Shown here: positions 1 to 34,258 of the stretch, in pieces
Layout of the letters: each line of letters starts with the position of its first letter
How positions within the stretch are numbered: the first letter of the stretch is position 1
Source of the DNA: Blasia pusilla
Taxonomy: Eukaryota
Length of the DNA: 64,000 bases
Assembly (NCBI GenBank): GCA_050084515.1
Contig: CM114271.1
Location: 7,068,001 to 7,132,000, forward strand
Direction: 5' to 3'
The notes under the pieces: model-generated
What the model was told of the DNA's origin: nothing
Databases searched by the model: none
The model's input: only the letters and a program-made list of their open reading frames with translations
Program-made: the position numbers and the translations under genes

Positions 1-420
1 CAAATGCCTTCTTATGCCAGTCCTCCAATTTGATAGGCAACTGATGGTATATGGCTCGTAAATCCAATGAATTGAAGACCTTTGCATGTCCAATCGCATC
101 AAAGCTCTCCTCACAGGTGGGCATGGCATACCTATCAGATTTCGTCTCCCGATTGATACGTTGGTAATCTCCACACATCCACCTATCAGTCCTGTTGCCA
201 TGCACATCCTTCTTGGTAGGCATGACAGTGGCAGATGCATATTCTCCATGCCACATCTCCACTAGTCTTGCTCCAACCAAGTCCTCGTTCCTACTCTAAA
301 TCATAGCTCTCTCCATGTCACTAAACGTGTAGGGTCGTCGGAAGATCAGCGTGTCACTTGAAAACTCAATGCGGACCCTTCAACTTACCCAAATCATGCA
401 TACTAAATGCAAAACATCTT

Positions 421-788
421 TGTCATGACCATACGAATTATGTCGTAGAGTATAGTGTGCTAGTAGAGGCCATACCTTATGTAGGGCCGTAGTGTCTAGG
501 TAGAGATGCGATTTCATATATAGGCTTGGGGGTTACTCAGTTGAGGGTGACTTTTCTAATAGGGCCCGCTCTTAGGTTGGAGGATATAAGGTGGAGTGCA
601 CTCAAAGAACAGTTAGTTCTTTCAGTTGAGCCTGTTGCGTTGGGAGTTAGCCTTGGTAGTAAGTAGAGCTCTTGGCTATGGTGTTTCCCGCAAGCTTCGA
701 CCTATATTCTCCCATCGTCGAGTGGGTTTGGCTCGATTGTATGTGATTCTATATGTGTTTTATGACAATAGGCCTTTCACGGATTTCA
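421..788 (+). repeat. Repeat A1 of element A (promoter/R/U5 part of the LTR)
   Basis: Colinear without indels with 5447-5814 (constant offset 5026, about 95% identical by eye). TATAA at 585-589; ends in TCA. Confidence 0.93.
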
Positions 789-799
789 CTCAAAGAATT
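789..799 (+). promoter_or_regulatory. Putative self-priming primer-binding site of element A
   Basis: CTCAAAGAATT lies directly after the CA end of A1. It is complementary (one G:U) to AGTTCTTTGAG, 30 nt downstream of the TATA box (5641-5651 in A2; 615-625 in A1, with one mutation). Confidence 0.65.
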
Positions 800-2278
800 G
801 ACGTAGATCCATGGTAGCTTCGATTGTGGATCAGTAGGATATGGTTAGGGCTGATTGTGTACTCAGACGTGGATGTTTGTGGCTTGTGGCCTATGTTGGA
901 GGTGTGAATCTGGTGCGTGGTTGGCTGGAAAAGAAGCGCCTTGCTGAGAGCTTTCCAACGTGCTTTAGATCGCCGGATTTCGTCAAGGGAGTTGGAAGTT
1001 ATCAAGGATTGAAGATTCTAGTTCGTGTTCGACGGTTTTCTGATGTGGAGAGCTTGGAGTGCGGAAGCTCTGTTGAAGTTCATCCAGATTGGGTGAGAGG
1101 TTCCTGTTGCTACTTGTATTGTGATCTCATGTGAAGCTATCTGCTCGAGTGTGTGGAGCGTTGCGAATTTCTGCGTGCATGGCGGGAAGCGGCATTTGTT
1201 GGATTTGCGATTCTTGAGGTGTATGGACAGTAAGTTTGTCTGATTTTTAGCCCGGAGTGCAGAGCTTGGTTGTAGCTGATTTTTTGTGTAGAGATAGCTA
1301 TAGTGATTAATTGAATTCTGGTTGAAAGAGATTCAATTTTCGTTAAGGATTTGTGAAGTAATTGTTGATCGAAATTTTGCGGACTAGTTGAAGGTCTGGC
1401 TATGGTGGATAGCGGATCGGAGGGGCTGGTTGGTTGGTGACTCGTTCATTGTTGGAGACACCTATCCTGTTGGGGGAGCCTTGGTTGGGCCTCACTCCAT
1501 AGCGAAGCATGGCGAAGCGTACCGAAGTGTGGCGATAAGGGCGATAGGGGCATGTCTCCGCGTTTTGAAGCTTCGAGGCAACTTGTGGTAGCTCGGGGCG
1601 AGTGGGCGTGAGAGGCGGAGTAAGGAGCAAGGAGCAAGGAGAAAGCTTGCTTGCTTGGGCGTGAGGCAGTTTTTGCAGGATTTGTGATTTGAGTGTTGCA
1701 TAACTGGTCACCCATCTTTGGGCTATTTTGCCTGGAAGACGCTTAACTGCTGAGTTCTTAACTATGTCAGTGTACACACTGTTGTAGCTCATTTGGTGCT
1801 GTTCGGAGAGGTGTTAGGTGCTTTATGCATCTCAGGTTTTTGGTTGATGGACCTCTAGCGCATTGTACGGTGTAGCCTCTCCATGCATGTGATATTTTCA
1901 GGTGCTGCGAGTTCGACTAGCACGTCATCGACCTGCGACGGAGTAGCTATTGCGTTAGAATTGTGTGGTGGGTTTTGTGGATTCAGGGGGCGCCACGTTT
2001 GGTGGATTGTGTTACCTTGATTTCCATTTGCGATTGGAGGATTGTCGTTGGACTTCATGTGTTTGGATCCCCTCCACGTTGCTTCTTACTTGCGCGCCCA
2101 TTGTTAGGGTTGACGGTGATTTCCAGAGTAGTGTTACTCCTGTGTGCTACCGGTAGTGAGGCTGGAGTGATGACGAGTAGACCGTGGGAGGCTTCTTGTG
2201 GTGATGACAGGTTAGGTTGCCTACACCCATAGCTAGTAGAGCTAGAATAGTATAGCGACATCGACGTCACTTGGTTAC

Positions 2279-3200
2279 TTAGTGGTGGTAATTTGGTGGT
2301 GGTGCGGCATCGGCGTTGGTCATCACGTAACTATCAGGTGGTCTGGTTGGATACCGTGGTGCGGATAGTGGTGGTTTCACACGGAGTGGATTTAGGTATC
2401 GGCTACCTTTTCCACTCCCTACGGTTGATGAAGAGGAGGACGAGAGTGTTCCAAACACCGAGTCTTCTACGTTGTTATCGAGTGTTGCAGCTCCATTGGT
2501 TTGGGACATGGACGGGATATATGGGGCCATGAAGGGCCCACCACGATACTCGCGTGCAGTGGGCACCATTGAGTTTGAGGACTTCATGCAAGAGTTTGAT
2601 ACGTGGTGTGATATGCAGATGTTGCGGAATGCCATGTTGTTTACACCCTTCTTGGCTTGGAAGGGGTTGTTTCAGCACTTGGAGGGACCACCCATGGATG
2701 ATTACCATGAGTGTAGGAAGGACCATGTTGTTGAGATTGAGGCGTGGAGACAATATTGGTGTCCAGGCTATGTGTCTATCACCCATGGTGGTATTGGTAA
2801 TCTTGCTCCTACTATGCCCCCCCGACGTTGACGTTGGTGAATGAGTACGAGCCGGAGTGGGGGTACCGAGTGGAGGTATCGGTGGGGTACAAGTGCCCCA
2901 CAATCGTTCAAATTGTTTGAGAGTTCTTCAAGAGGTTGAAGAAGAACTATCAGGAGTGAAAGAAGAGAAGTTGAGGAATCTTCAAGACTTTGAGCGAAAG
3001 ACTGGTGAGAGTCTTCGTGAGGCAAACACTCGTATGCGACGCTTGATTTCAGTTACCCAAGGTGTGACTGAGGCTCGGGAAATCCAGACAATTTTGGTAT
3101 GGGATCTTGGACAGAGAGTTGCGCCGCAGGGTACATGATGCTACTCTTATGAGTGATGATTCACCTACATTGACCCATGTGTTTGCTCTATCTGAGAGCA
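2279..3200 (+). pseudogene. gag remnant of element A
   Basis: Motifs AVGTIEFEDFMQEFDTWCD, AWKGLFQHLEGPPMDDYHE and LQDFERKTGESLREAN are shared with the gag of elements B, C, D and E. Contains frameshifts and stops. Confidence 0.8.
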
Positions 3201-3465
3201 AACACATGGTATGGCCGAGCAGCGTCGACTTCGGACTATGTCTGTGGGTCTTCACCCCTTGTAATGAGCTCGATGGCTACCGAGATGGTAGAGGCATCGG
3301 CTGGGGGCGAGGAAAGTAGTATTTTGCATCCTTGGAGTAAATGGGATGTAATGGTTGGGCATGTGGAGTTAATTGCTCATGCTGGTAGAGGAGTTATTTG
3401 CTCAGATGATGGTGTAGCTAAGGGTGTACCATCTTGTGGGGGGGTTGCGTAGCAGCCAATGGCAT

Positions 3466-5166
3466 CCGGTGGTACATAGACTTGGAGTTGCCAACCTTGA
3501 TGCTGATGGGTTGAGTAGGAACCCATGTACTAGCCAAGAGGATACAACTGGGGCTGGATGGCATGGCGAGGTTGATGAGGAGATGGTGCCAGGTTGGCAT
3601 GCATCCGCCTTTTTATGTTGGTTAGGGATGGACTCTAGTATGGAGGACCACATGATATCTTACTCTAGTTAGAGGGTAGACGGCCAGCCTTCAGATCCTA
3701 AGGTTGGAGATGGTGGTACGGATCAGCGTGATATTCATGATGATGCATTGGTGTTGGAGTTCCTACGGATCAGTAGGGTGCCAGGCATAGTGAGTGCCAA
3801 GGAGCAAGACCGTGTTCTTCAACGTGCTAAGAGGTATCGATTGGAGGGAATACCTATTCTCCGTGTGTGGGAGGATGGTAGAGTACGAGTAGTGCCGCAT
3901 TTGGCTCAGAGAGAGCGCATTGTGCGACATGCCCATGAGGAGTTGGGACATTTTGGGGTAAAGCGTACGTATAGATTGCTCCTTGGTCAATATTGGTGGC
4001 GTGGCATGCATACTCAGGTGCAACAGTTGGTGTCATGTTGTATGGTTTGTGACCGGGTGAGGGCATCATTCAATGCCTTTACACCACAGTTACACCCCTT
4101 GCCTATTATGGGGTTGGGTTACCGTTGGAGTGTGGACTTTGCGGGACCGTTACCGTTGACTGTATGACATCATCGATATGTGTTGGTGATGGTGGAGCAC
4201 TTCTCCAAGTGGATTGAGTTGGTGGCATTACCTGACAAGGCAAGTGAGGGAACGGCGGATGCGTTTCTTAATAGAGTGCTTAGTCATTTTGGTGCACCAA
4301 CTGAAGTGATGACCGACGAGTGCATGAGTTTGAGGTGAGTTTGGTCTTGTGTGACAAGGCGTTGATTGATCATCGGACCACGTCTCCAGATCATCCAGAG
4401 GCGGATGGTTTGGCTGAGCGTGTGGTTCAGATGGTGAAGAGGGCATTGCGCAAGTATGGCCTACAGAAGGGGCATCTTGGAGACTGGGATATTCAATTGC
4501 CATGGTTAGCCATGGAGTATAGATTCAATCGCCAAGCATCCTTGGCTTCCTTCTCACCTTATTTTTTGTTATACGGCCGAGATCCAGACTTGCCAGCTGC
4601 AATTCCTCGGGATTCTAGTGAGGTGGTGAACCTTGATGACCCAAAGATGTGGATGAGAGTGTGTTTAGAGCGGCGAGCTCTTTCGGAGAGTTCTGCCAAT
4701 AGCCTTTGAGAATCTTGCCATTGCTCAACACAGGGATACGTTGCGGTATGCAACCATTCGGGATGGTGGTTATCGACCATCGATTGGTAGGTTCCATGTG
4801 GGGGACTATGTCTATTTGCAGCAGATTGCACCGACAAGGTTGGATGTGACGGCAGGCCACACTTTTTTACGAGTGCGCGAGGTGTTAGCTTCTGGAGTTC
4901 TCATGTTGGAGGGTCGTGATGGAGTTGTTTGGAAGGACCTTGTGCGTAATTGTGCACCATGTCATTTTCCAAATGTGGATGGTACTGTTGACCCAAGCTT
5001 AGCCATGATACGTGCTAGCTTGAGGTGCATGTTGTGTGGGTCTGTTGGTAACGCAGCCTGTATGTTGGTGTATGATCGGTGTTCTAGGGGTTGGCACATG
5101 ATGTGTTTGACTCCACGTGTGGATGTTGTTCCTACTGGAAGGTGGGTTTGTCCTCGATGTACTTAG
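3466..5166 (+). pseudogene. pol remnant of element A: RNase H C-terminus, integrase (HHCC + DDE core) and C-terminal PHD finger
   Basis: VVHRLGVANLDADGLSR; AHEELGHFG...YWW...CMVC; RWSVDFAGPLP; HPEADGLAERVVQMVKRAL; SPYFLLYGR; PHD CMLC...DRC...WHMMCL...W-CPRC at 5026-5160. Confidence 0.9.
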
Positions 5167-5329
5167 GAGAGGTAGATGACTTGATCTTTGCATGATATGG
5201 ATTACAGATGTGCGACTAACGATGGGGCAACCTAGCACCCGGCCTTCTTATTCGTGCATCGAAGAAGGTGTATAGCATGTAGTAGATGTATAGGGCTACC
5301 TGGGAGTTAGAGGGACCTAACACTTGATT

Positions 5330-5340
5330 AGGGGGCGAGT
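5330..5340 (+). promoter_or_regulatory. Polypurine tract upstream of B1 (element A)
   Basis: AGGGGGCGAG-T lies immediately before TGTGG, the start of repeat B1. Confidence 0.55.
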
Positions 5341-5444
5341 TGTGGTACACTTGTGTTTGTGGATGCTCTCGTCTATGTTATGTATGTATGTGAGTATGGT
5401 ATTTCGGCGATGTATGTTGTATGACGATGTGGATTCGCACGACA
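5341..5444 (+). repeat. Repeat B1 of element A
   Basis: Near-identical to 5817-5924; ends GATTCGCACGACA. Confidence 0.9.
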
Positions 5445-5446
5445 AT

Positions 5447-5814
5447 TGTCATAACCATACGGATTATGTCGTAGAATATAGTGTGCTAGTAGAGGCCATA
5501 CCTTATGTAGGGCCGTAGTGTCTAGGTAGAGATGCGATTTCATACATAGGGTTGGGGGTTACTCAGTTGAGGGTGACTTTTCCAGTAGGTCCCGCTCTTA
5601 GGTTGGAGGATATAAGGTGGAGTGCACTCAAAAAACAGTTAGTTCTTTGAGTTGAGCTTGTTGCGTTGGGAGTTAGCCTTGGTAGTGAGTAGAGCTCTTG
5701 GCTATGGTGTTTCCCGCAAGCTTCGACCTAGATTCTCCCATCGTGGAGTGGGTTTGGCTCGATTGTATGTGATTCTATACGTGTTTTATGATAGTAGGTA
5801 TTTCACGGATATCA
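5447..5814 (+). repeat. Repeat A2 of element A
   Basis: Direct repeat of 421-788. Confidence 0.93.
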
Positions 5815-5816
5815 GT

Positions 5817-5924
5817 TGTGTTACACTTGTGTTTGTGGATGCTCTCGTCTATGTTATGTATGTATGTATGTGAGTATGGCATGTCAGCGATGTATGTTGT
5901 ATGACGATGTGGATTCGCACGACA
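5817..5924 (+). repeat. Repeat B2 (terminal) of element A
   Basis: Direct repeat of 5341-5444, followed by the TSD. Confidence 0.9.
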
Positions 5925-6322
5925 TCTCCTATAACTCCTAAGGAACTAGTGTATCACACGCCGCTATCCTCCTTTCAACTTAGGACCCATATCTGGCTCC
6001 CAAGTCTCCATCGTGACTACGGTAGGACTCTCCGACGCTCATGTCGGTGGTTGCTATGGTGCAACCCCGTCTCGGAAAATAGAATTCTTATCTCCACGTG
6101 TAGTACTCGGAACCACGCTCGATGTTGTGGCTATCATCTCATTGTTTACGTGCAAAACATCCCAAGAAGTCCAAGGGTGTCTCTCCCGATCACCCCTGGT
6201 GTGTCAATCTCCTCAGGTATCGCCATTGCCTCAAACCTTTCAGTAGGCATGGGGCTCACCAACATAACAATTGTGATGTAGTGTATCCTCAAATGACGTT
6301 GCTCAACTACTCCTAAGCTGAA

Positions 6323-7265
6323 AATCCATGTCAAGCAGTTTAGGTCCATCGCCTGACCCAAGACATGATGTCATGATGCCTCTGATAGTGACGGTACTCC
6401 CGTCACTCCTATGGGGAATCCCATGGCTCGCTCTCGCTCATCGGCGTTGGGCTCCACCAACCTCTATACTTGGTCATCCCAAACCAAGCCAAGTCCGGCC
6501 TCCTTGAATGCATAGGAAGCGGGAAAACTCATGATTGTGGGAAAGGCTGCCCGTGGCATACCAATTCGATTGACCACAGTCAACGGCGCTCGATCATTGT
6601 GCCTCATTACCTGTGATTGACGACATGGATCCATAATAGAATCCACCAACCAATCGGAGGGGCGCTCCACTCTCGCATATGCCCTCCACAACACCTCGTT
6701 TGGTACCAAGTTGGTCCACCAAAGATGCAGGCGATGTGCTCGTGAACCCACACTCGCCGCATCCAACCAAATTTCCGGGCCTATCCATAATCGCACTTGA
6801 TGTGCAATTGTCATCACACGGGACCTCAAATCGCCCAAGATCGGTACATTCTCTAGAATGTATGCTGGAGGACAAGACTGATGGCCCTGCAAGTGTCGCA
6901 AGATCCGAATCATCTCCCAAAACAACATGGACCGAGAATTAGCTAATCCGCTATCTTGTCCTGCACTCGACAATCCCTGACATGGCCAACCAGCAATGAC
7001 CAAGTCTATGGTCCCTATCCACTCCAAGTCCTGCGCCCGAACAATGAAATCTCCCTCGGTAGGGAACTCTGGTAACCCTAAATGGCAGACGTAAAAAACA
7101 AGTCGGGAAAACCGAGGCATAATTGCGCCATCAGGTGAAGTGAAGCGTGCCTCGCAATATCGTCAATCTCCACATACAAGTACTGTTGCACGCGCACTCT
7201 AGGCTGCATAACAGCAGTTTACCTAGTGTTGATCCCTCCAAAGAGATCCAACACCCGAATACCCT
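6323..7265 (-). pseudogene. DNMT3-like cytosine-5 DNA methyltransferase domain in pol of element D
   Basis: Motif I VLDLFGGINT; IV DLVIAGWPCQGLS; VI YILENVP; VIII SRAHRLHLWWTN; IX ERERAMGFP; X LGQAMD (ORFs 6464..7120 and 6146..6361). Confidence 0.9.
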
Positions 7266-7599
7266 TCTCCAGGATGCACCACACAATCGGGGTGGTGTCC
7301 AAAGGGGTCAGAGAAGCACTCCTGGCTACATGGGGTTCCTCAGACCCGTCATACTCTAGTGCAAACGTCTTGCTCCATGCGGTTCACACATGCTTAGTGG
7401 CTAAGCATCGAAGCACCTCAATCGAGCCCCAAAGGGGCATCTCTCCCCTGATGCGGCTTCCATGGCACTCCTTTCCATAGAAATGTCAGGAATGGGAGTA
7501 TCCTCTGCATGGACATGTCCCTCGATCAAATCACTAGGCAAAGTGATGGCACTACGAAATGCTCCTAAGGTCGCCATCTCTCCTGACCGTCACTCGATC

Positions 7600-10200
7600 A
7601 CTATACCTGTGAATCGAGCGGGTAATGAGCTAAGGCGCCCATCACATAACTGCCATCTTGGTCTGTAGGACGCTAACTCCTCCCAATAATCCAAGGAAAA
7701 CCCCATCGGGAATAACACTACTTCACCAGCCAAGACGTCGTAGGACTCTACATCAGTCACTATCGCCTTGGCTCGCACCATAGACTCATCTGTAGGATGT
7801 CCTCAGCGAATCCTCATCACGACCTCATGTCGGCTGATATACTGTGTGATACTCGTTCCACCCAAGGATGTCTATATCCGAAATGGAAAACGCTCCACAT
7901 CGGTTCTTATCAAGCCCAATCCTCTGAATGACGCTTTCCCCAAAATCAGGGGTTGCGGCTCCTGAATCCAAGAAGAGGCGTTGCGGACTAAAAGCTCTAC
8001 CTCCAAGACTCACCAACTGGAAGACTTCTCTTTGGTTATCCATCAACACAACACTAGGAGAAGCCAAGGCACGCTCTATCGCACGTGTAGCCGGCATCTC
8101 CGCCATCCTAGCAGCCGAAGTCTGCCATGAATCTGACGTGGACGGCATGAGCATTCGTTCCAAGGGTAGGCCCATCACCTCCTCTGCAATCATCTCTAAA
8201 CATGATGCAGGAACTCCAACTCCACGCTCACATAGAGTAGCGGCCAGTCGAAAAAACCTCGGCGGGCGTACCTCCCAACGTCATAACATTGGAGGCAGAA
8301 AATAAAGGAGCGCGGTACACAAGGGTGGCCGCTCCCAACAACGTGCTTGACACATGCCCCTCCTAAGCATCAGCAATAGGAGTCCTCACACTCGCTTCTC
8401 CCATCGCCCTCCGTGCCTGCACACCAAGAACGTCACCAACTCTCCAAGAACTCAGATCATGACTCATCGATGGGGCCCTCATCCCCTTGGACAACGTGAA
8501 AGACTAAGGAAGCCTGGTGTCTTTCGTGGCTTTCCCTCAATGTGGATCCAACTCTGCGGTTACTCCTCACATCATTTCTACGGCGGCCTCCATCTGGGCA
8601 ACCCCGCACATCAACCAGGATCCTCCATATCTCTCGTTGCTCCATATGATGTCGATGCCACGGATCCGGCATCGAGTAACCTCAATGCCATAGCGGCAAT
8701 CTACTCTTGTATTTTTTGTATCTGAGTAGTCATCCCAGCCTCAAGCTTGGCGTCTCCCTCGAGGCGTCTAGGTGGTGGGACTCTACCTCCTCCACGGGCA
8801 GCTCCACTACCCTGTCGGGAAATTCTAGCTCCTCGTCCCCCAACAGAACCACCTGGTGCACGATCTCTAGACCACACGGACCTGCTACTCGCTCAGGTGC
8901 CCTCTCTAGGCCTCGGACCGAACGTAACTCATGGTATAAATTGAAACATCCGGTGCGTATGTGACCATGCCTCTGACAATAGTCATAGTGATAACCTCTT
9001 GGTGTAGCACCATCTCCTCCGCTATGCTGAGGCACACGTCCATGACCCTGACGAGTGCAATCGCGCTGATGATGGGCTCCACCACATGACCAACAAGTAA
9101 TCATAGGCGGCTGCTGCTGATCCGTATATGAAGGCACAGCTCTCTGTGGCATGGCCTCCCAATATCCTCCCTGAGCTCATGGTGCCACAATCAACCTATC
9201 TCGGAGTCCACGTTGTTGCACAAGTGGTGTAGATAATCGTGATTTCTCTAGCCTTGAACCCACGGTGGCTACGTTCTCCTCCTCCGTGTTGCTCTCAATA
9301 TTCTCGACGGTCCTAAAAACATCTCTCAATGTAGGGGAGGTGTTCATAAGAAGCACCTCCTTCCGCACTCGTGTCCGTAGGGTCCGGTCTAGTATCTCGT
9401 ACCATGACTAGATAGCCAGAGCCTCTATCAACCCCTAAGTGACATTGATCAACCAGCACAAGTGAATGTAAGCCTCACGCAAACTCTCACCCGGGTGCCT
9501 TTGGAAGTCTTGGATGCTCTGTAACTTCTCCATCCGTACCCTTGGTAGCTCGCCCTCAACTCAGCGAAGAACTCAACCATGGGGTTGAACTTGGGACGAA
9601 CCCGACTAGAAGGTGCAACTGCTCCAATGCGAGTGACCCCTCCTAAAACATCACTAGTGGAAGAGGAAGTAGCCTCTCCTGACACCTCCTCCTCATCTGA
9701 GAATGGCTCCGTCCATGACACATAGTGTGGATCATAGTAGAGTCGCCATGCCTCAATCTCTTGGGCATATCTATGCGAGAACTCATGGTAATTGTTCATG
9801 GGCGCCCCCTCTAAATGTTGGAACGTACTGTTCCATGCTTTAAACGAGTTGAACTCTCTAGAGTTCCTAGCCCGTTGTGAGTCACACCAACTCCTAAACT
9901 CCGCAATGAAGTCATGTAGGTCTATAGTGCTTACATCACCCGAAAACCTACGCGGTCCTCTACCCGGTCGTCCATCTCATACGCCCAACTAGTAGGACCA
10001 CTCAATGTGTACAGTGGACCACTAACACCCTCCTCTACACGCTCCCCCTTGTCTAAAGATGACACAGAAGGCGATCGAGGTGATCTCTCAAGTGGAGATC
10101 CTTGAAACATCGCACCACTCCGTGTAAACCCTCCAGAGCTACTCTCTGGTCCACTACCTCGCCTCTTAAAATCCCAAAAGGACGTCGTGATGGCCCTCGT
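7600..10200 (-). pseudogene. gag (two Zn knuckles) and aspartic protease remnants of element D
   Basis: Knuckles CWSCGGAHHQRDC and YCQRHGHIRTGC; protease RLFLDSG and ESYDVLAG. Homologous to 25888-28083. Confidence 0.85.
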
Positions 10201-11806
10201 GCCCCTCTCACATGGTCACTCCCAATCTCGCAAGTCATACCTTAATCATCCAAACTAAACATGCAGCACTCCATCTACACTCTCTCACTAAGACGTGTGT
10301 TGTACATCAACAAGCAACGTGGTGCGGAAAATCAACTAATCTATCGTCTCATCGACAAACCATCCTCGACTCTCGACATCCCACACAGATCTATGTCCCT
10401 AAACCCATACATCATCGATGTTCTCAACATTAGCATGAAACCCAATATCCCAAATAACTTCCCAATACCCGTAAATCCCTCATACGTGTAGGGTAAGAGA
10501 CCAAAATGGATAACCTGACAATAATGTCGATGTCGCTCCTCAGCAATTGCAAATCTCGACCCAACTCCGTCGTGAAGATAAGTCCTCCCATCAGCAAGTC
10601 CTACTCCTCTCATTCTCACGTTGCTCAAACCTCCTTGATGTGTGGTGCAGGTCTAGTGGTCCGGTGTGGTACTGGCAGCACTGAACGACTACAAACGGCA
10701 CGACACTCGAGAATGGGATGCGGCACTCGACGACATACCCTCCTCAAATCAGAAATTCACACACTCTGCTCCTTAGTGAAGGAGCGGCTCCACGATCGAG
10801 ACATTGCGGTGCAGCCACCAGTAGCACGGCATGGCAATCGGTGGCGCGTTGCGGCTACAGGCGTCACGGCACAGTACTTGATCGTCATCCAGCGGCTACC
10901 AATCACAACATAACAGCATGAAATGAAAACTCAAACACCATAACCCGAGGTCACCTGCCATCATTGGTTGATGATGAAACTATGATGACGTTGGCGACCA
11001 AATCAAAGTACGTGGTGGCGGCGCAAGTTAGAGAATCAATGGTGATCGTGGAAGACCCTCCACACTGTAATGGTCTCAATTGCAACCAAAGGGTGGAGAA
11101 CGATCGAACGCAGCTCTAACCAGCGCTAGACGGCGGCAGCGGCCGACGTTGGACGATGGATAGTTGACCATTGATGATGCGGTGGACCATCAACGATGAG
11201 GATTGACCATTGACAGTGACTATGATGGCAACGGCCGCCGCAGGAATGGCGGCTGGCTTAGGGTTTGAACAATTTAACCCTACAAATTGCCTAGCAATGG
11301 AAATTTTTCAATATTGACCATAACTTTTTGCTCGCAACTGCAAATTGCGCACCGTTTATTGCACAGCCTCCACAACTTTGCAATCTATGACAAAATTAAA
11401 AATATTTTCAATCAGACATTCCAGTAAAATTTGACAAAGAATGTCGTAAAGCCCAATGTCTCTATCTCGTACACAAAATTTGGCAGTGCTTCCACACTAA
11501 TTTCTCCCAACAAAAATGTAAAAATTTGTGAGATACAAATCAGCAAGCTACATGGTGCTCCCAAGAGCATTAGCATGGAGTAATTCGCCCCTATACTCAA
11601 TTCCTATAAAAAATTGGGCAACGCTTCCGCGTGCCACTCTCCCGTACAAAAAATCAACAAAGCAAAACAGCAGACTCGCATGGCTCTTGCTCTGATGAGC
11701 ACTCCCATGAGCCATGAAGCGGGAAACATGATCCCCCAAACTGCACCAAATATCGAGCAATGAGTGAGCTTCCCCATGAAGCTTTCTCACTCACTCATTC
11801 TCTCTT

Positions 11807-12299
11807 TGTTAAATTAGACACAATCTCTCTCTCAACACCATAGTTCTCGCATGTGTGCACTCTCACATGTCTCTCTCCATGTCAAACCAAACCCACTCTC
11901 CTGTTGAGACGTTTGGATTACACACACAAGGCAAGCAAGATCATAGCTCCGCCGCCTCATGCTAAGAGGTTCAACAAAGATAGAATGAGCTCTCAAGCTC
12001 TCTCTCTCCTTGAGGTATACCCCTCCCCTCTTCCAAGCTGTCTCTATGGTAACCTATGCTTCCAAGTCACCTCCTTGGCTCTTGACCTGATGTAGGAGGT
12101 GAAGGGACACTTACCAAAAATACAAAATTGACAATATACTCAAAATGGCACATATCTAAAATAGTAAGTTCCTCAATATGGCTCCAAATGAGCCGAAACA
12201 AAGGCCTCGGTAGGTCATCCTTAACCTCATGAGTTTGTCCTCCACTACTCGCAAAGGCGTTCTATTAGATCTCACCGATCTATCTTAAAAGACGTGATA
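11807..12299 (-). repeat. Repeat A1 of element D
   Basis: Reverse-complement homolog of 23833-24338. On the minus strand it is followed by the PBS AAGAGAGAATG (11796-11806). Confidence 0.85.
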
Positions 12300-15200
12300 A
12301 CTTACGTATGGTATGTAGTTGTAGATTTCATAGGCGACTTGAGGATGCCACTTGCACTTGCAATGCCACATTAGGATGTAGCATTACAAGCTACCACGCC
12401 CCTGTAACTCATAACGAATAAGGTAGTTGTGCACACCACCCATAATTTTGTGGCTAGCAAAAATATTGTCATTAAGAAAGGACTTTAGCCAAGTGTGGAA
12501 AAGAACAACATAGTCAGAAAATGCATCTCTGCATGTGAAAATAAGATTAAGTTTATGAACTACTAACTATATATGTATTACCTTACGCTACTTTGTATTT
12601 GATCCTTCGTCTAATGTAAGTGTCAAGGAAAAGTGTGGCATCCCCCATTTCCATACACTTGCCTTTGAATCCTTTAAATGAAGTCAATGCCATGATGGAC
12701 TACAAGGTATCTAAGAACTAACAAAGTACTTGGACAAATGCTCATGAAGTTCCTCGTTGTGCACAGGTGGGTGCCTTATAAGGGAATAGGGCTTATGTAG
12801 CCTAAATAAATAAATAAAGTCGTCTGGAACAATTTTGGATGTAATATGAAAATGAGCAATACGGAAGTACAAATGGAAGTATACTTGTCTCAATGGTCAA
12901 CTTACTATCTACTAACAGTCTAGCTAATCTTGTCACTTAGGAACTACTCCATGTAGTGGCTTTGTTATCTAATAAATCTACTACCACTTTGGTATATATC
13001 ATACAATTTCCTTCTCTTAACTCATAAACAATATTGCATGTCCTGAAGCACATTCAACTTTGTGCGGTATAGATCATACGCTATGCTATATGTTAGCAGA
13101 CCTTTCTCATGGGAATCTCTTAGGATTGCTGCATCAGAAGGCGAAGATAGAACTATAAAGCGGGAAATGGGACTAGGTAACTTGATTAAGTGTGTGTAGA
13201 AATATTATAAGTCATTCATCCTTAAGTTGATTAAAAGTACTCTTCAAACGTATTTACATATACAAATAATTCATATATAGAGAAAGGGTATCTTACAAGT
13301 TTCACCGAAGAGGTGGACAACCCAGAAGGGAGCTAAAGTCAAAAACCTTTACGAAACCCATTATACTTTGTCTCTATACTGAGTTTAAAATCGAGTATTG
13401 ATAGAAATTGTAAGTATAGTGGATTAATAGCTAATATGTCACACATGTACGTTGATGTACATATCATGTATAGATTGTGTCATGTATAAGGCCCATTGCT
13501 TACACACTACATACAAGTATAAAATGCTCCATATGATGGTATTGTTTTGGGCCTCATGTAACCATTGCATGAAGCGTATTGTGGCTCCGCTCTTGAAAAT
13601 GTTACTTTCATTATCGAGTGCGCACTACGATATGAAGTTGACCCAAAATATCCACAACACTTCATTTATTTTAGAAATATTGCACATTGCAAGCTCCAAC
13701 TATGGTAAGGTAAATCTATGGTAGGTCATACTCGACTCACGGGTTTCCTTAACATCCTATTTGCATGGGATGTTCTTGATCTTGGATCATCCCTACATTG
13801 TCTCAACCTCGATCTATTCAAAAGTATTGATGGTCTACTTCTCTTTGATATCCCAATTCGGGTCATGAGGCTTTTTGATACTTAAGTCAACTAAAAAGTT
13901 GAGGTGGGAAAGTTGGGAAGGTGATAGGTATACGCGATTGTAACTGGTTACAAGTGTTTGGCTGCTGGGGTAGTTTTTCACCATGAAGTGTGTTAGAAGC
14001 TTATGAAAATGTACAGGAATATTCTAAAAATTCTAAAGGCTTGTGTGAAGCATTGGTTGAAGCAAGATATTTGCATATAGCAACAGTAATTGGGAACGCA
14101 AGAGTAGTACGACGCACTACCACAAATTTTAATAGAATAACCATGTAGAAAATGAATGGGATAGTGGGTAATACTGTTCACACTACCTAACGATAGTTAT
14201 GAAAAAATGTTTCGATAGTTACATGATAACGGAAACACGGTTAACCAAGTTAATGAAGTGGACAGAAGACTATAGTTTAACGTGTACTTGATATATACGT
14301 ATCATATGTAGAATTTCTATGCTAAGATTTTGTGAGCTACATCCAAGTACATGTTACACAAGCTCTAACAAAAAGCTCATTGACATAAGTTAATACACAC
14401 ATATAGCATACGCGAAAGGAAGATTCATAGCATTATTGAGTAATATATAAGATGAGTAGAACAACCCACTCATTCATAGGATCATACAAGTGTCCAAATG
14501 TTGCAATGAGAAACTAAACTGAAAATTTAGAAATGCCTATGGATATATTGTTTTCGAACTACAATGGTTTATTCATTGCTAACAAAACATACTACTCATC
14601 AAAGCAAGTGTCTCAATAAAGGTTGCAATAATCTACCAAGTGTTATGACCACCATAAGTGTAGACTAGTCACAAGTTTCCATGTAAAAAAAATGTAGTCT
14701 CAATAGATTGTAGAAATTATCTACTTTATGTTGATTAACAAATGTTGGCCAATAGCGGAGGACAAGTTGCCGATGGTCAAGAAACGTTGTGCAGTAATAA
14801 AAACCTTGTTCACAAACCTACTTATAGTGCAATAAGGGCGTGGGCAAGTAAGGAACAATCCCGTAATGATGGAACTAAAATGCGCGAATAACTCATAGAC
14901 GGCCGGGGGCGGAAAGATAGGTCTGAAAAAACACTAGAAAAAATCTTGTGCAACTTATTAGGCGATCAGAATGGAGAAGTTTGAATCTCACACATGTGGA
15001 AAAAAATCCAACTTATACATAGAAACCTACACTACTATTTATTGTGGCAAGGAAAATATAGAAGAGAGAAACCTGGTCGATATTGAACACGAGATATATA
15101 AAGCACAAAAGCATTAACCACATTGAGCACAAAATTTCTTACCCAGTCTGCAACGATATGTAGCCTTATGTATGCAGATAAAATGTGCTTGGATGTGATG

Positions 15201-17717: not shown

Positions 17718-18200
17718 TGTCAAATATGAGTAGCCGATTGGTCGAGATCTATTGTGGATAGGGCATAGGAGCCAATGGACTATCTTGAGTGTAACGTTGT
17801 CCCACGGGGTCGGATGAGGTTGAGGATAGGTCCATTGTGTCAGGAACGTTGTTTCTGACAACTTTCCTGTTGAGGTCTTTCACAATTGGGTGACTTGTTG
17901 ACCAAGTCACCCGCCCTTGGTAACCTGTACGTGCAAGTTACCAAGAGGATAGCGATTTTTAGGGGAAGAGCCTTTTGGCTCTTCCTAACCCTATATAAGG
18001 GAGAAAGATGGCTTTCCCAATCCATCTTTCTCATGTTGGGCCGTTGGAGCACCTCTCTTGTATGTGGGTGAGATAAGACTAGGGTGCTAGCGTTTGGATT
18101 CCTTGATAGCATAGGGTGGACGAGGCTCGATATGCCGATGTAGATTGAGGAGTGGAGTTTTAGGTCGGGTGTGCCGTTTTTACTACTCTTTATTTTTACA
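17718..18200 (+). repeat. Repeat A1 of element B
   Basis: Starts TGTCA, has TATATAA at 17992 and ends TTTACA. It is followed by TGAGAAAGATG (18201-18211), the exact complement of 18023-18033. Confidence 0.75.
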
Positions 18201-19409
18201 TGAGAAAGATGTCGGGGGGCTAGTGGTAATTGGTTGTTTGTAGGTAGGAAAGCAAGTTGCCACGAGTGGGAGGCCCCTGGAGACGCTGGTTGGCATTTTG
18301 TTGGTCATTTTTATGTTCGGAAGACCGTGCGTGGAAGCGCTGTCCGTTTTCTCAGGTTTTTGCTAGTGCACAAGGATTGGGGATAGTGGTAGAGTGTAGT
18401 ACAAAGAGGGGTAGTGAGTGTGGTGTCAACGGATGAGCGGCGCATGGTGAGAACGTTGGTATTCGAGAGGGGAAGAGCATCTTTAGGGCTTGCAGCCGCT
18501 GGGGGGCTGTCAAGTAAAGGTGGCTAGAGTTAGGTCATAGCTCACTAGAGTCGGACGAAACCAAGGCGTGGACGTGGACGGAGCTAGGAGGCGGACTAAG
18601 CCGGGGGCGCAGAGGCGTTTACAAGGCCACGGACCCATCACAATTTAGGGCGGCCTCATAGGGCCACGGGCCCCGCATTTAGGCCCCCCCCCCCCCCCCC
18701 GCCGCGCCCTCTAGGCCATTAGGGCCCTCCAGGCCATTATGGCCCAAAGGGACGCGAGCCATACCTTGGCCCTTTTGTTTTTCCCCCTTACGTAGTTGAG
18801 AGCGCCGTGGTGAGCGCCTCCTCGACGTGGTGGAGTGCGGACGGGATTGAGTTTAGGTTGCGAGGTGCGTTTGGGGCTGGGCGGAGAGATTTTTCATGAC
18901 GTGATATTTTTCAAGCGTGGTTGGGGTTTGTGAGGATTCCGATGGAGGCATATACGCCGATGCTGACAGGAAGTTCGATGTGTTGGTTGAGGAGAGTTTC
19001 GTGTTGCGGAGGTTGTCATATCACGTGGAGGAGTGGATGTTGACGATGTAGTAGGTTCGTGGGCGTGATCAGTTTATCCATTTGAGTCCCTTTTCTTGCA
19101 CTTATCTTATGTGATTGAGAGTGCTTGGTATTGAGTAGCAGCAGGTGCTAGGTGGATGCAGTGATGGTGACAAGTGTAGACTCTTTTCATGTGTAGCATG
19201 TTGGTGGATATACGGCGGTTTCGAGTAGGGGTCGCATGTATGACCCGAGAGTGTTAGTAGGTTAGGTGAGTCAGTTAGGAGGCTCATGGTGAGCCCGAGT
19301 GTTGAGTGCGCGTGAGGCCGAGTGTGTCGTTAGGGGATTATTATTAGCATCGGTGAGCTAGTGAGGAGTGTGGGAGACTCTTGGTGAGTTTGAGTGCTTG
19401 AGCGGGTGA

Positions 19410-21955
19410 GACAGGGTTGTCATCACGGCATTCTTCCAGGGTTTGGAAGAACGGGGTCGTGCGAGCAGTAGTAGTGGTGTGACACGGAGTGGACTGAGAT
19501 ACGAAGGGGTTACGAATGAGGAGCTACCTCGACATCCATCCGTGGCTAGATTTTCATCACTAGACACTGGGTCTGGTGACGAGATCGCAGACGGAGGCAA
19601 TATCACTTGGCGGGAGATGGACAAAATGGGCCATCGAGGAATGCGTCGTTTCTCGAGTGCAGTGGGCACCATCGACTTAGATGATTTTATCCAGGAGTTT
19701 GACACGTGGTGCGACTTGCAAGAGATACAGACTGCGACACGGTTTAACCCTTTCATGGCATGGAAGGGGTTGTTCCAGCACTTGGAGGGTCCTCCGATGG
19801 ATGACTACATGGAGTTTTGATCACTACATTCAGTAGAGATTGATGCGTGGAGGATGTATTGGGCTCCAAGGTATGTGTTCACTAGTGGTCGCGAGGCATA
19901 TGATGAGAACGTGAGAGGAGAGAGACCCACACCATCAGCCCGGAGACTAGATGGAGAGGAGGGCAGTGAGACAGGCGATGTGGTAGAGACCTCTAGTGGT
20001 AGAGGGCCACCCAGCTTCAATCCCACAGTAGTGTTCTTCCGACAGTTGGTGAAGAGCTACCAGGGCGTACGCACCGACAAGTTGAAGAGTCTACAGGATT
20101 TTCAGCGACGATCGGGTGAGAGTATGAGAGAGGTATTCACACGCATTAGGAGGCTGATCATTGGTACAGGGTTTTGGACCGAGAACTACGAAGGAGAGTC
20201 CAAGATGCGGTGGTGATTCACACAGTGAAGCCCACATTGAAGGTGATCTTTGAGTTGTCTGAGCGTATTGAGCTCAACATGAGTGAGGAGCAGGTAGTGA
20301 CCGTTGGATTTTCTCGAGAGTTGAAGGATCCACCAACAACGGTGACCCCACAGGTGTCAAAGCGAGCACAAGTACCACGAGAGCGGGCGTGTGTGCCCAT
20401 AGAGCAGGTCGGGTACCGTGAGCCTATGAGGCAACGACACGTTCCTACATATGTTGCCCAGTAAGGACCAATGTTGTCTTGTTGGATGTGTGGAGGGGCC
20501 CACAGGCATAGAGATTGCACACAGCATGGGAGAGGACCAAGAGCGCCTCCGATTGCTCAGGAGCCACAGAGGATGGCCCCACCACAATACTAGTGTGACT
20601 ATTGCCATAGATATGGTCACACTAGGGATAGATGTTTTGACCTTCTTCGAGAGGCACATCCAGAGGTAGGGCGAGGGCCTAGGGGCGATCGTCTTGGAAG
20701 AGGTCGGGGAGTTCTTCCTGGATGTGGTGGTAGAGGACCACCACCAGCTAGAGGAGATGGAGCAAGAGCACCAGAGCCGGCACTTCTCTCACGCATTGAT
20801 CAGTTGGAGTAGAGGATTGCTGCCATAAGGATGATGCAGCTCAGGGAAGGCACGGAGCCGCGAGCACCTAGTGTGGCTTCAGCTTCTAATTCTTACCCTG
20901 ACCTGGGTGAGGATCTTGCTAGTATGGGGTTTATGTGTAGTGCAGATCAGGTTGAGGCGGCTGCAGTGGTGACTCGGGGTGCTGCAAGAGGTACCGAGCC
21001 ATCGAGAGGTGGAGTTGAGATTGACTCACCAGAGGGGACCGATGGGCGGCAGGCCAGGGTTCCACAGTCATTCACATTGTTGGAGGCACTACACACACCA
21101 TTGATGATTCCTTGACGACCAACGGTGCCTACAGCTCAGGCAGGTACATTGACCTCACGAGGAGTTGGAGTGACAACTCCTATGTCAGCTCGAGTGGAGT
21201 CAGTGTCGACCATAGTGTTGGAGGTGGCCACCATAGTAAGTTAGATTCCACTATTTTCCGCCATAGAGTTGGCGATGTTTGGAGTTGGACTAGTTGAGGT
21301 GTTTTGGCTAGCTATCACGTTGTGTGAATGTGGAGAGGTGACTGCTTCTTGTTCATAGGTAGTTGATGAGGTGATGGACTTGCCCTCAAAGCTAGTGCTC
21401 GGGACATCCCCCACAGAGTCATGGCATACGACGGCGGCAAATTTGATAGATATTCTAGCTCGACCGGCCATAGAGCGAGCAGTGGTGACACATGGAATAG
21501 TGTTACTGGATAACCGAGCTGGAGTAGTTTGCTTGGTTAGTCCAACGAGGACAGTATACCACCCGCATTGCGTCCTACTTGATTCACGAGTGCAACTCTT
21601 GATGTTAGGGAAGGCCGCGTGTTTAGCATTGGGGTTACGGAAGGCCGACATTGAGACTTATCCCTTTCAGATATAAACCTCGATTGGGGGCGTATCACCC
21701 ACATAGTATATGACTCGACAGGAGATAGTTGTCAGAGTCCAGCGAGAGCATGCGACGGATAGTGCTATGGTGCGCACATGTGCGATTACGACACCAAACG
21801 AGTCGTACGATGTGTTGGTGGGGAGTACAGTGTTATATCCCCTAGGATTCATCATTGACTTCTCGGAGGAGACCGTTGCTTATCCGCCAGGGTGGTGGTC
21901 AGGTGACACATGGATGAGTCAGTTATCCATGCAGTTTTTGGGAGGAGGTGGTTGA
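19410..21955 (+). pseudogene. gag and protease remnants of element B
   Basis: AVGTIDLDDFIQEFDTWCD; AWKGLFQHLEGPPMDDY; degenerate Zn knuckles at about 20480-20650; protease VLLDSR and ESYDVLVG. Confidence 0.85.
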
Positions 21956-22302
21956 TCACGAGACGAGTCTGTGACCACGTTGGCAACTTTCACAAGGAGT
22001 GTATGTTAGCTGGTCTGGAGAGTTGTTGGAGGGAAATGCACATGCACTGGATATCACAGTAGCGGATAGTCCCACGGAGAGACATGCCATGGCAGGTGTC
22101 TCTTCCCATGTTGGCAAGACCTCTTCACCATTGTGGGGTACGACTCAAGAGCTATAGAGGAGTGCCAACGACCTCGTGAGGCAAGTGTAGAGTCATGCCT
22201 TTATCCCGGAGCAGCAAGAGTCAGGTGGCCATCGGGCCCCTAGAGTGGAGGCGTTGACCCCACTGGATATCATACCCATTGTGTGGCAGTGTCGAGAGGA
22301 CG

Positions 22303-23227
22303 GTGTTAGATCTCTTCAGACGGATTAGCACCGGATTAGCTGCAATATTGCAGGCGGGCATTGGGGTGCATCGGTACCTTTATGTGGAGAGAGATGAGTC
22401 CGCGCGACAAGTATCATTACGTCACGTAGCGAGATTGGTCCAGAGGTATCATGAGTTTTTTCCGGTATCCGTAGTACAAGGATATCAGCATACACTACCC
22501 GCCGACATATCTTTGGTGGGGGCGCAGGATCTAGATAGAGTTGGCACCATTCATTTGGTGATTGGTGGATAGCCATGTGAGGGTCATTCATCAACTGGCC
22601 AAGGGTTTGGATTGAAGGACCCAAGGGCAGGGATATTTTGGGAGATGTTGCAAGTAGTACGACACTTGCAGGAGATGTTCTCCGACATATATTTTGGAGA
22701 ACATGCCGTTGTTGGGAGATACTCGTGCATGTGTGATGACGAGTGTGCATCAGGTGAGGTCCTCGTTGAGACCTGCTGTGTTGTTAGATGCAGCAAGAGT
22801 TGGATCACGCACCCATCGTCCATGACTATGGTGGACGAACTTGATACCATCATAGGTGCTGAGTCGAGCATAGGATGGAGTCCAGAGAGCACCACATCTC
22901 CCACTAGATGCTATTTTGGGATCAGGGCGTCGATCTCAGGTGGTGACGCAGGATGATAGACCACCGTTGGCGATGGCCAATAGGGTGGGGGAGTTGAGGG
23001 CAGCCTTATCTAGGTTGGTGAGCTTCCCAGCATCCCATGCCTTTAGTTAGGGAGGGCCAGGCATGATTTGGGATGAGGTGAACTGAGCATTGGAGGAGCC
23101 TCCAACAGATTAGCGCGAGCGTGCCATGGGGTTTGCTACGGGTACTACGGCGTTGCCAGATAGGACTGAGGCATCCCGGAGACAAGTGTTGGGGCAAGCG
23201 ATGGACCTCAATTGTCTCACATGGATA
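22303..23227 (+). pseudogene. DNMT3-like methyltransferase domain of element B
   Basis: VLDLF; YLYVE; HLVIGG*PCEG; ILEN (frameshifted); SRTHRP.LWWTN; AMGF; RRQVLGQAMD. Confidence 0.85.
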
Positions 23228-23832
23228 GTCAGCCTAGGTATGGATGAGCAGAGACAGATGCGAGTGTCATCTATGCCGTCACGTCCACAAGTCGGACCAT
23301 TGCCTATAGGGTCTGTACAAGCATTGGGTTGGGGTGGGACGAGGAGACATAGGCACCCATGGATTTCCTAGGACGTCGTTCAAGCGGAGAGTGCGGAGGC
23401 GGTGAGAGTAGCACATGTTCATTTTCTGGATGTAGAGCATGGTGTAGGAGGTCAAAGTGGAGTGGTTGTTGCGGAGGTGGCTAGGGTTACTACATAGCAA
23501 CCAAAGCCGGAGGTTGCCTCCTCTCCGAGTGAGGTCAAGATGGAGACTTGGGAGCCTGTGATAGGTATGAAGTTGATAAGAGGAGAGTGACGGCGAGTTC
23601 ATAGGTTTCTGAGAGGCCATGTAAGTTGTTTTGCCTTCAGTATGAGAGATTTGGATATGCTGAAGGGTCACAAAATACGGATTGAGTGGGCTAGTGATAC
23701 GACGATCTTTTGTCGACCCTACATGTATTCTGATATACAGCGAGTCTTGATTCAGACCAGGAGTCGGGACTTGTTGGAGGTAGGACTTGTGGAGTTATCA
23801 CATGGGGAGTATGCATCTGCCATAGTCATGCC

Positions 23833-24338
23833 TGTCACGACGGTTATGATAGATCGATGGGATCTAGCAGAGCGTCTGCACAAGTAGTGGAGGATAGGCC
23901 CAGGTGGTCGAGGATCACCTCTTGAGGCCCCGAGAAAGTTGAGAGAGCAGGTTTCCCCTTCGTTCGGCTCATTTGGAGCCATATAGAGAAACTTACTATT
24001 TTTGGTAAGTTTCCATATTAGGGATAGTTGACTTTCCACTTTGGGAAGTGGCCCTTCACACGTTTTAGCAGGTCAAGAGCCAAGGTGGTGACCTCCGAGC
24101 ATAGGTTACCGTTTAGAGGGCTTGGGGTATACCTCCAAGAGAGAGAGAGAGCTTGAGAGCTCATTCTCTATTTGTTGAACATCTTGGCATAAGGCGGCGG
24201 AGCTATGGTCCCTTGCCTTGTGAGTGTAACCCAAGCCTCTCATTAGAAGAGTGGGTTTGGTTTGACATAAGAGAGAGTGCACACCTTTGAGAGCTATGGT
24301 GTGAGATGGTGTAGAGAGAGATTGGATCTTACTTTACA
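23833..24338 (+). repeat. Repeat A1 of element C
   Basis: Direct repeat of 33625-34137. Ends TTTACA and is followed by the PBS AAGAGAGAATG. Confidence 0.92.
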
Positions 24339-28083: not shown

Positions 28084-28433
28084 TCGAGCGACGGCCACGA
28101 GAGGTGGCAACCTTAGCAACATTTAGCAGTGCCATCACTTGGCCTAGTGATTTGATTGAGGGACATATCCATGCAGAGGATACTCCTGTTCTTGACATTT
28201 CTATGGAGAGGAGTGTTATGGTAGCCGCATCATTCCATGGAGGAGAGGTGCCGTTATGGGGCTTGACTGAGGAGCTTCGACGATTGGCAAATGAGCACGT
28301 GCAAACCGCATGGAGCCAGGCGTTTGCACCAGAGCGTGACAGGTCTGGGGAACCCGAGGTAGCAGGGAGTGCTACAATAACATCCTTGGATACCATACCC
28401 ATTGTGTGGTGTATCCCGGAGGAGGGTATTCGA

Positions 28434-31020: not shown

Positions 31021-31370
31021 CTCAGTTTGGGAATGGTTGAGCAATGTCGTTTGAGATCGCGATAGATCACAGCGGTTGCGTTGGTGAGCCCCGTGCCTAC
31101 CGAGACAGTGGAGGCAGAAGTTGGGCCGAGACCCGAGGAGATCTACACACCAGGGGAGATCGGGAGAGACACCCTTGGACTTCTTGGGATGTTTGGCAAG
31201 TACGCTAGGAGATGATAGCCAGAGCATCAAGCGTGGTTCCGGGCACTGCATGTGTAGGAGATCAGAGTATGCAGTTGGTAGTAGGAGAGCGGTCGAGTGT
31301 TGTTGTTTGAGACGGGGTTGCACCATAGCAACCACTAATACCTGCGCCAGAGAGTCCTACCGTAGTCACA

Positions 31371-33573: not shown

Positions 33574-33622
33574 GTTCGATGACAACGATGTACGTTGTGT
33601 AGCGATGTGTATGCACACGACA
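33574..33622 (+). repeat. Repeat B1 of element C (5'-truncated by deletion)
   Basis: Matches 34206-34254. Ends CACGACA, followed by AC and the start of A2 (TATCACG). Confidence 0.85.
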
Positions 33623-33624
33623 AC

Positions 33625-34137: not shown

Positions 34138-34254
34138 TTGGAGATATTTTGGTACTTCTCGCCTCTGTGTATGGATGCCATGAGTTAGCATGGGATCGTG
34201 TGTGTGTTCGATGACAACAATGTATGTTTTGTAGCGATATGTATGCGCACGAAA
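34138..34254 (+). repeat. Repeat B2 (terminal) of element C
   Basis: Homologous to 33574-33622 and to the reverse complement of 63112-63238. Confidence 0.88.
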
Positions 34255-34258
34255 TGCT

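Follow-up and report, generated by a model that had tools for sequence, protein, structure and literature searches.

Ty3/gypsy-type retrotransposons with permuted long terminal repeats and 4-bp target-site duplications in a genomic window of the liverwort Blasia pusilla

In a 64,000-nucleotide (nt) stretch of the genome of the liverwort Blasia pusilla (GenBank assembly GCA_050084515.1, contig CM114271.1, positions 7,068,001 to 7,132,000 of the forward strand; hereafter the window, with positions counted from its first letter), we find Ty3/gypsy-type retrotransposons whose long terminal repeats (LTRs) are permuted. These elements share with ordinary Ty3/gypsy elements the order reverse transcriptase (RT), RNase H and integrase, the D,D35E and H2C2 motifs, a 4-bp target-site duplication and TG...CA ends. 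Ordinary elements, however, have two complete terminal LTRs, whereas here a single repeat segment, A, stands at the 5′ end and the segments B-A-B stand at the 3′ end. Signals and transcripts mark B+A as the functional LTR; the boundaries of the inserted DNA are an A start and a B end, with TG...CA and the 4-bp duplication; the B|A joint within the LTR (J1) is palindromic; and the A|B joint (J2) is built like an LTR-LTR junction. We hold this set of observations with high confidence. The accepted view is that LTR retrotransposons and retroviruses use the ends of linear complementary DNA (cDNA) for integration and that the LTR-LTR junctions of circles are dead ends. As the best explanation of the elements described here, we propose that their reverse-transcription ends and their integrase ends are out of register, the cDNA being joined at one site and cut at another; taken as a whole, join-and-cut step included, this explanation appears to us moderately probable. 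With boundaries at the A start and the B end, each integrated copy acquires the structure A-internal-B-A-B.

Element A (421-5924, + strand) displays the full arrangement. Comparison of the window with itself gives the order A1, internal region, polypurine tract, B1, AT, A2, GT and B2, in agreement with a first-pass annotation of the stretch that had drawn the same layout and the same two junctions, B1-AT-A2 and A2-GT-B2. A1 (421-788), which would correspond to the 3′ part of the unique 3′ region (U3) followed by the repeat and unique 5′ regions (R-U5) of the functional LTR, is 94.6% identical over 369 bp to A2 (5447-5814), the alignment running from 420/421 to 788 and from 5446/5447 to 5814. 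B1 (5341-5444), corresponding to the 5′ part of U3, terminates in CACGACA and is 92.8% identical over 111 alignment columns (5338-5444 against 5814-5924) to B2 (5817-5924), which forms the right terminus of the insertion. The polypurine tract, TTAGGGGGCGAG, occupies 5328-5339, immediately 5′ of B1. J1 (5438-5453) is a near-palindrome made of the B end, a 2-nt spacer (AT in this element) and the A start, and is our proposed integrase site; J2 (5813-5818), where the A end meets GT and the B start, resembles an LTR-LTR junction and is also represented in DNA reads.

Two paralogous empty sites show the extent of the inserted DNA. The sequences on either side of element A (10-419 and 5923-6586) run on without a break in a paralogous copy (31872-31455 and 31459-30759), and those on either side of a second element, C (23833-34254, + strand), namely 23534-23832 and 34254-35847, correspond in a related copy to 31365-31663 and 31659-33222. 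The whole block from A1 to B2 is therefore what was inserted. A 4-bp target duplication stands beside the TG...CA ends in all five elements for which both ends are available. Three of the duplications are perfect: AACG/AACG in element D of the window, and CATA/CATA and TACA/TACA in L020 and L004, two loci from a metagenome scan described below. The other two contain one C/T change, namely TCTT (417-420) and TCTC (5925-5928) in element A, whose paralogous empty site holds one copy of the target, and TGCC/TGCT in element C; since the paralogous site has C in both cases, the mismatch represents a C-to-T change in one copy. The duplications thus lie outside A1 and the terminal B in five of five elements, which is where the first-pass annotation had expected them.

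We also counted junctions in reads from a DNA run (X14) carrying the same species label, where counts pool all copies at least 85% alike. After the B end (...GACA) the sequence diverges in 865 reads, and in a further 371 whose next base matches by chance; before the A start (TGTC...) it is diverse in 402 reads. The A end is joined to the B start, forming J2, in about 350 reads, and runs on into one conserved sequence in 596 (agreement 0.93). Read depth across B and A is 1.5-2.2 times that of the internal part. These data bear on a different reading of the repeats, in which A alone is the LTR and the B behind A2 is a duplicate of a 3′ untranslated segment, put there by a secondary event, nested insertion or misassembly. 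Such a reading draws on the fact that A1 begins with TG and finishes with CA by itself in family A. Against it, the same order recurs in three families of the window and on at least six independent metagenome contigs, J2 is found in those roughly 350 raw reads, and the target-site duplication follows B2, not A2. Moreover, the polypurine tract precedes B1 with no purine run 5′ of A2, and B ends and A starts are conserved as inverted repeats. We regard an A-only LTR as highly improbable.

The position of the polypurine tract and the transcripts both point to B+A as the functional LTR. A G-rich polypurine tract directly precedes GT and the B start in each of the eight copies with a whole B1 (element A and the metagenome loci L020, L014, L006, L013, L004, L011 and L001). 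Two RNA-seq runs (X17 and X18), again of the same species label, were mapped on 4600-5830. Their sense-strand reads cover the internal region, the polypurine tract, B1 and J1, with 144 reads (X17) and 184 reads (X18) across J1 at position 5445. Coverage then declines along A, from about 154 to 34 in one run and from about 220 to 23 in the other, and 21 reads (X17) pass from the A end into the primer site. J2 occurs in none of the RNA reads, compared with about 11 predicted from the DNA ratio (about 350 J2 reads to 596 A-to-primer reads). This coverage pattern indicates a transcript composed of R-U5, primer site, internal region, polypurine tract, B, J1, the rest of U3 and R, and hence a functional LTR of B+A with B2 outside the transcript. 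The first-pass annotation had called B+A the true LTR, and its proposal holds up: the polypurine tract adjoins B, the primer site adjoins the A end, and RNA crosses B|A but never A|B. B1 and B2 of element A are 96.2% identical when gaps are excluded, compared with at most 89% to other copies, and as mutual closest relatives they fit a scenario in which a single template served for both within one cycle. We considered and rejected the idea that B1 and B2 are inherited separately, as no grouping into B1-type and B2-type sequences appears across copies. A side observation from the same runs is a 96-nt skip over the polypurine tract and B start (5290-5387), present in RNA reads only (10 in X17, 7 in X18, none in DNA), which could reflect a spliced or variant transcript or a copy unsampled in the DNA.

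Judging from complementarity within the elements, minus-strand priming is probably a self-priming of the Tf1 type. The first 11 nt after the A end (789-799 in element A, the putative self-primer binding site) exactly complement an 11-mer of A, which is intact at 5641-5651 in A2, lies at 615-625 in A1, and would constitute the first 11 nt of the transcript. This 11-mer sits 30 nt 3′ of a TATAAG motif (585-590 in A1); the set of TATA, box and 11-mer recurs in 9 of the 13 family-A copies of A, and in the 8 copies with the A end present the 11-mer lies 169-174 nt before that end. Family C, in sequence unrelated to that of family A, has a complement of 12 out of 13 positions in the same relative place (24339-24351 and 24160-24172), and in a fold of the metagenome locus L070, nt 1-12 pair with the primer site. 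As for a primer site of the transfer RNA type, no TGG start adjoins the A end in any family, and we set this candidate aside. Several results speak against self-priming: no complement to the sequence after A was found in element D, the 5′ end of the metagenome locus L002 does not pair with the primer site in its fold, and neither the L070 nor the L002 fold is better than shuffled sequences (z = -1.2 and -0.1).

Self-priming was predicted for the plant Tcn1 clade by Neumann et al. 2019 (PMC6317226). As in Tf1/sushi and plant Tcn1 elements, the putative primer site of the elements described here lies right after the LTR and complements the predicted first 11 nt of the transcript; these elements differ in having a permuted LTR and a PHD finger on the integrase, where Tf1/sushi and Tcn1 elements have two ordinary LTRs and a chromodomain. 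As a separate observation, A also contains a copy of the primer site (601-610 in A1) 2-4 nt 5′ of the putative 11-nt self-primer, and the two together (601-625 and 5627-5651) form a 10-bp hairpin at the U3/R border.

The protein domains place these elements with Ty3/gypsy. RT, RNase H and integrase follow in this order in elements C and D and in the metagenome loci (tblastn), as well as in L020 (Pfam). Element A itself holds no RT: by tblastn and Pfam, homology is limited to a decayed pol remnant at 3469-5163 (+) comprising the RNase H end, H2C2, the rve core and a PHD finger (tblastn with residues 523-1081 of protein P0005; PF17921, PF00665 and PF00628). H2C2 (PF17921) and rve (PF00665) integrase domains occur in element A and in L020, and D735, D795 and E830 are invariant in 14 relatives, making up the D,D35E triad. 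The integrase is thus of the DDE type, as had been annotated. At its C-terminus is the PHD finger (PF00628; 5026-5160 in the window, about 12980-13115 in L020), in the place where chromoviruses carry a chromodomain. We speculate that the PHD finger may act as a chromatin reader that guides insertion.

The repeat order A1-internal-B1A2-B2 is that of PAT, Toc, Kangaroo and Ngaro elements (PMC4157794), and one could suppose that the Blasia elements likewise belong to the DIRS/PAT/Ngaro type and integrate by a tyrosine recombinase. The order shared with PAT and Ngaro is what this alternative has in its favor. Yet a search of element A in its three sense frames and of the 8.3-kb internal region of L020, an intact-length relative, in all six turned up no Phage_integrase or other tyrosine recombinase domain, nor do the Pfam annotations of 120 homologues contain one; the first-pass annotation had predicted this absence. 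A DDE integrase is instead present and conserved, and the 4-bp duplication flanks five of five elements. Tyrosine recombinases are not known to make target-site duplications. Integration by a tyrosine recombinase therefore seems to us extremely unlikely.

Within pol, 5′ of RT, many copies encode a Dnmt3-like C5-methyltransferase domain (PF00145), as seen in the open reading frame 6464-7162 (-) and in L020. Using tblastn with the Dnmt part of protein P0026 and Pfam, we located this domain at 6314-7162 (-), 22303-23794 (+), 28550-31029 (+) and 63315-63755 (-) in the window and at about 8800-9320 in L020; it is present in elements C and D, in a minus-strand copy and in the copy at 63112-64000, and lacking from element A and L014. 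The best matches of the Dnmt region are liverwort proteins, including Marchantia Mp_2g26090, and the RT open reading frame of element C matches a Calypogeia fissa protein at 73% and a Marchantia protein with RT and methylase domains at 67%. The combination of RT, RNase H, integrase and PHD finger is common to many unnamed homologues. In the L020 translation, CCHC-like and DSG-like stretches, of the kind expected for a gag zinc knuckle and an aspartic protease, are visible by eye, with no Pfam match at E <= 0.01; protease families are listed for the homologue P0035. As part of our best explanation, and with the same moderate confidence, we consider that the elements represent a bryophyte/charophyte clade of Ty3/gypsy type with the order gag, protease, often a Dnmt3-like domain, RT, RNase H, DDE integrase and PHD finger.

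The ends on which this integrase would act are recognizable in the repeats. The A start and the B end are imperfect inverted repeats that meet at the B1|A2 joint in a near-palindrome of the form 7+2+7. Even families whose A repeats cannot be aligned have in common the ~40 nt that close B and the ~9 nt that open A. At the center of J1, GC makes up 66-71% of the spacers in about 1062 genomic reads; in seven copies the spacer reads AT, AC, TC, AC, GC, GC and GT. We rejected the idea of a hypervariable spacer remade in each cycle, given the GC majority in reads and the origin of AT, AC and GT by C-to-T decay of a CAGCTG core. Since these integrase ends lie inside the LTR, it follows that the cDNA would have to be joined end to end (A|B) and opened at B|A. 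The integrases of foamy virus and HIV-1 are able to cut palindromic LTR-LTR junctions (PMC1180852, PMC1905944). The geometry of J1 is similar, in that a DDE integrase would cut an internal palindrome of abutted ends, but in retroviruses the junction exists only in circles and its cutting is a side route, whereas here the palindrome lies within every LTR and its cutting is apparently the normal route. Insertion sequences of the IS3/IS911 type also rely on a DDE enzyme that acts on abutted ends a few base pairs apart; these, however, are bacterial DNA transposons without reverse transcription or an LTR.

A route that accommodates these features can be outlined as follows. Transcription would begin within A1 and stop within A2. 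Minus-strand priming by the A end and plus-strand priming at the polypurine tract by the B start would allow reverse transcription to yield a linear BA-internal-BA molecule, whose two ends would then be joined at J2. The simplest way to achieve this is a 2-LTR circle, a plausible intermediate that we infer from the junctions; end-joining after an integrase cut would be equivalent. Integrase would cleave both strands of one J1 on the 3′ side of CA, producing two recessed CA-OH ends with 2-nt 5′ overhangs, the form that an integrase requires, and these ends would be inserted with a 4-bp stagger. A 2-LTR circle opened at the J1 of the 5′ LTR, as the first-pass annotation had proposed, would give exactly A-I-B-A-B, where I is the internal region. 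For this specific route, joining at J2 and opening at J1, we put the chances at even.

Several results count against it. A symmetric 2-LTR circle has two equal J1 sites and so predicts A-B-A-I-B as often as A-I-B-A-B. The first-pass annotation had indeed forecast A-B-A-I-B and solo A-B as alternative products; B precedes A at none of nine 5′ ends (window 421, 12299, 17718, 23833 and 55780, all of which open with A as that annotation had observed, and L020, L014, L070 and L004), and BLAST of the window and metagenome loci revealed no solo A-B. Either the route is asymmetric, then, or the A-B-A-I-B form collapses quickly to A-I-B. J2 is moreover uniform, 280 of ~362 joints in DNA reads falling in one class; cellular end-joining need not be so precise, and this uniformity fits a simple circle badly. 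In the DNA read census, the counts include other families with a common B end, and loose-end classes are listed only from about 356 reads upward, such that a minority of canonical BA-I-BA copies may have escaped notice. Finally, the sole start flagged by RNA is at 5608 (X17), not at the predicted 5641.

An asymmetric variant of the join-and-cut route, in which the left J1 of the linear cDNA would be cut first and the free ends joined later, could be envisaged. One may also envisage permuted DNA arising with no closed circle at all. In that case RT would jump from the A end to the B start, producing a longer linear or concatemeric cDNA from which the A..B unit is excised at two J1 sites, or the left J1 of linear cDNA would be cut, both ends inserted, and the remaining ends joined by the host into J2. 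A join that is templated or very precise would agree with the uniformity of J2 and with the one nucleotide that A has in common with the base preceding GT-B, and the bias toward one product (0 of 9) comes more easily from an asymmetric linear substrate than from a circle. Excision from concatemers, on the other hand, should yield many A-I-B copies, and only 1-3 of 12 3′ ends are of this type (L004, L011 and window 63112); end-to-end jumps are also rare for retroviral-type RTs. We consider a circle-free origin unlikely, though clearly less so than either of the readings rejected above. The A-I-B by-product itself had been predicted under join-and-cut, and was found in L004 with an intact target-site duplication.

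The permuted layout is already in print, briefly, and the elements described here are of a known but barely studied kind. The first-pass annotation knew of no description for Ty3/gypsy; the legend to Fig. 4c of de Mendoza et al. 2018 (PMC5890265), however, states a DIRS-like repeat arrangement with Gypsy-like domains for KnitGypsy-Dnmt3 of Klebsormidium nitens. Compared by description, KnitGypsy-Dnmt3 resembles the Blasia elements in its Gypsy-type pol with an internal Dnmt3-like domain and in its order A-coding-B-A-B, with the same domain set in elements C and D, the minus-strand copy and L020; it differs in its host, and some of the copies studied here (element A, L014) are without Dnmt. The text section on KnitGypsy-Dnmt3 and the Fig. 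4 legend give no target-site duplication, junction anatomy, primer sites or mechanism. In our literature search the name KnitGypsy was found in PMC5890265 only, and the open literature searched, with subscription journals and Repbase reports outside the search, yielded no other mention or mechanistic analysis of a DDE element with split repeats. Relative to those parts of PMC5890265, the new elements of this report are the occurrence in a liverwort and on metagenome contigs, at least three families including Dnmt-less copies, the 4-bp duplication, the J1 palindrome, the self-primer design and the transcript evidence for an LTR of B+A.

These elements offer a natural system for an old question, the use of a junction as substrate by a DDE integrase, and they bear on the origin of split repeats in DIRS, PAT and Ngaro elements. 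A wider proposal is that, throughout a clade of Ty3/gypsy elements in streptophyte algae and bryophytes, integration necessarily starts from end-joined cDNA (a 2-LTR circle or its equivalent), in place of linear cDNA, opened by a DDE integrase at a palindrome built into the LTR; that split repeats, a layout otherwise taken to mark tyrosine-recombinase elements, are a general signature of a joined intermediate irrespective of the enzyme; and that such elements are possibly a living link between LTR and DIRS elements; we advance this tentatively, at somewhat less than even odds. The PHD finger together with the Dnmt3-like domain suggests chromatin-guided targeting and self-methylation, an idea already raised for the Klebsormidium elements. 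For annotation, LTR finders that need two terminal LTRs would place boundaries off by one B, taking B1+A2 or A1/A2 as the LTR. In bryophyte and charophyte genomes, such finders would thereby misplace the target-site duplication, and would assign wrong ages to these families or overlook them.

The remaining elements of the window are more damaged or nested. In element C, A1 (23833-24338) is followed by the Dnmt3-like domain, RT and a partial integrase, a B1 remnant ending at 33622, A2 (33625-34137) and B2 (to 34254); its A repeats cannot be aligned with those of element A in the window self-comparison. The first-pass annotation had assigned it the order of element A, and the order stands, whereas B1 is not complete: its last ~52 nt are left, the deletion also taking the end of the PHD-finger coding region. 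Element D (17718-37103, +) represents a third A family and is split by element C inside its RT. It had been noted as likewise ending A-then-B, and its 3′ end does consist of the last 82 nt of A2, J2 and B2, but B1 and most of A2 are lost. A minus-strand relative of element C (1-12299) has its A start at 12299, hosts element A in its RT and runs past the window start. The 5′ part of a further C-family copy lies at 52140-55780 (-), its A start at 55780 having no B upstream, and in another C-family copy (63112-64000, -) a deletion has fused the Dnmt region to a single B that is followed directly by flank. Elements A and C are both inserted in the RT of relatives, but the metagenome flanks have no clear pattern, and we discarded the idea of a preference for such sites.

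Relatives were sought in metagenomes with an alignment of 14 proteins, giving 80 loci. Fifteen of them, 44-67% identical to the query, were checked for repeats; the other 65, more distant Ty3/gypsy loci, were covered by a scan for the J1 motif and BLAST only. L020 has the full A-I-B-A-B structure by repeat comparison (A1 4652-4990, B1 13295-13407, A2 13410-13746, B2 13749-13861), and L014, also a full copy, has a truncated B2. L006 and L013 are the same insertion, in which B1-A2-B2 is visible, and L070 extends from A1 to B1-A2, reaching the contig end. L001, of another family, has B1 followed by the A2 start, with J1 present. L004 is an A-I-B copy, and L011 ends with the internal region and B abutting flank. 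Among the more distant loci, L032 gave AT-rich simple repeats only and L018 a single 7-of-8 palindrome with no surrounding repeats.

Some minor observations concern decay and neighboring sequence. A deletion from the end of the PHD coding region into the 3′ part of A2, removing B1 and J1, is found in two unrelated copies (window 36884; L007, 3321). In L007 the deletion stops beside the putative transcript start, and a third deletion affects this region in element C. An AT-rich foreign insertion of 1.7 kb (29072-30758), with a duplication of 7-8 bp (ACCGTTG), interrupts the Dnmt region of element C. The paralogous copy lacks it at 6581-6586; it is unlike gypsy elements, and a non-autonomous DNA transposon is one possible identity. 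A unit of ~330 bp, unrelated to the A and B repeats, occurs in at least six copies in both orientations, with 72-82% identity, at 51369-51713 and 56021-58830. Likely host coding sequence lies among the elements at 39213-39980 (+), 47772-49052 (+) and 38505-39818 (-), and comprises a RING finger with a kinase start behind it, four SH3 repeats of the Mind-bomb type, and a 437-amino-acid antisense open reading frame without a family. Across the whole window GC skew tracks element orientation, at about +0.2 on the sense strand and negative over minus-strand elements, and differences between copies in the read comparison are dominated by G>A and C>T; together, the skew and this excess fit decay driven by methylation.

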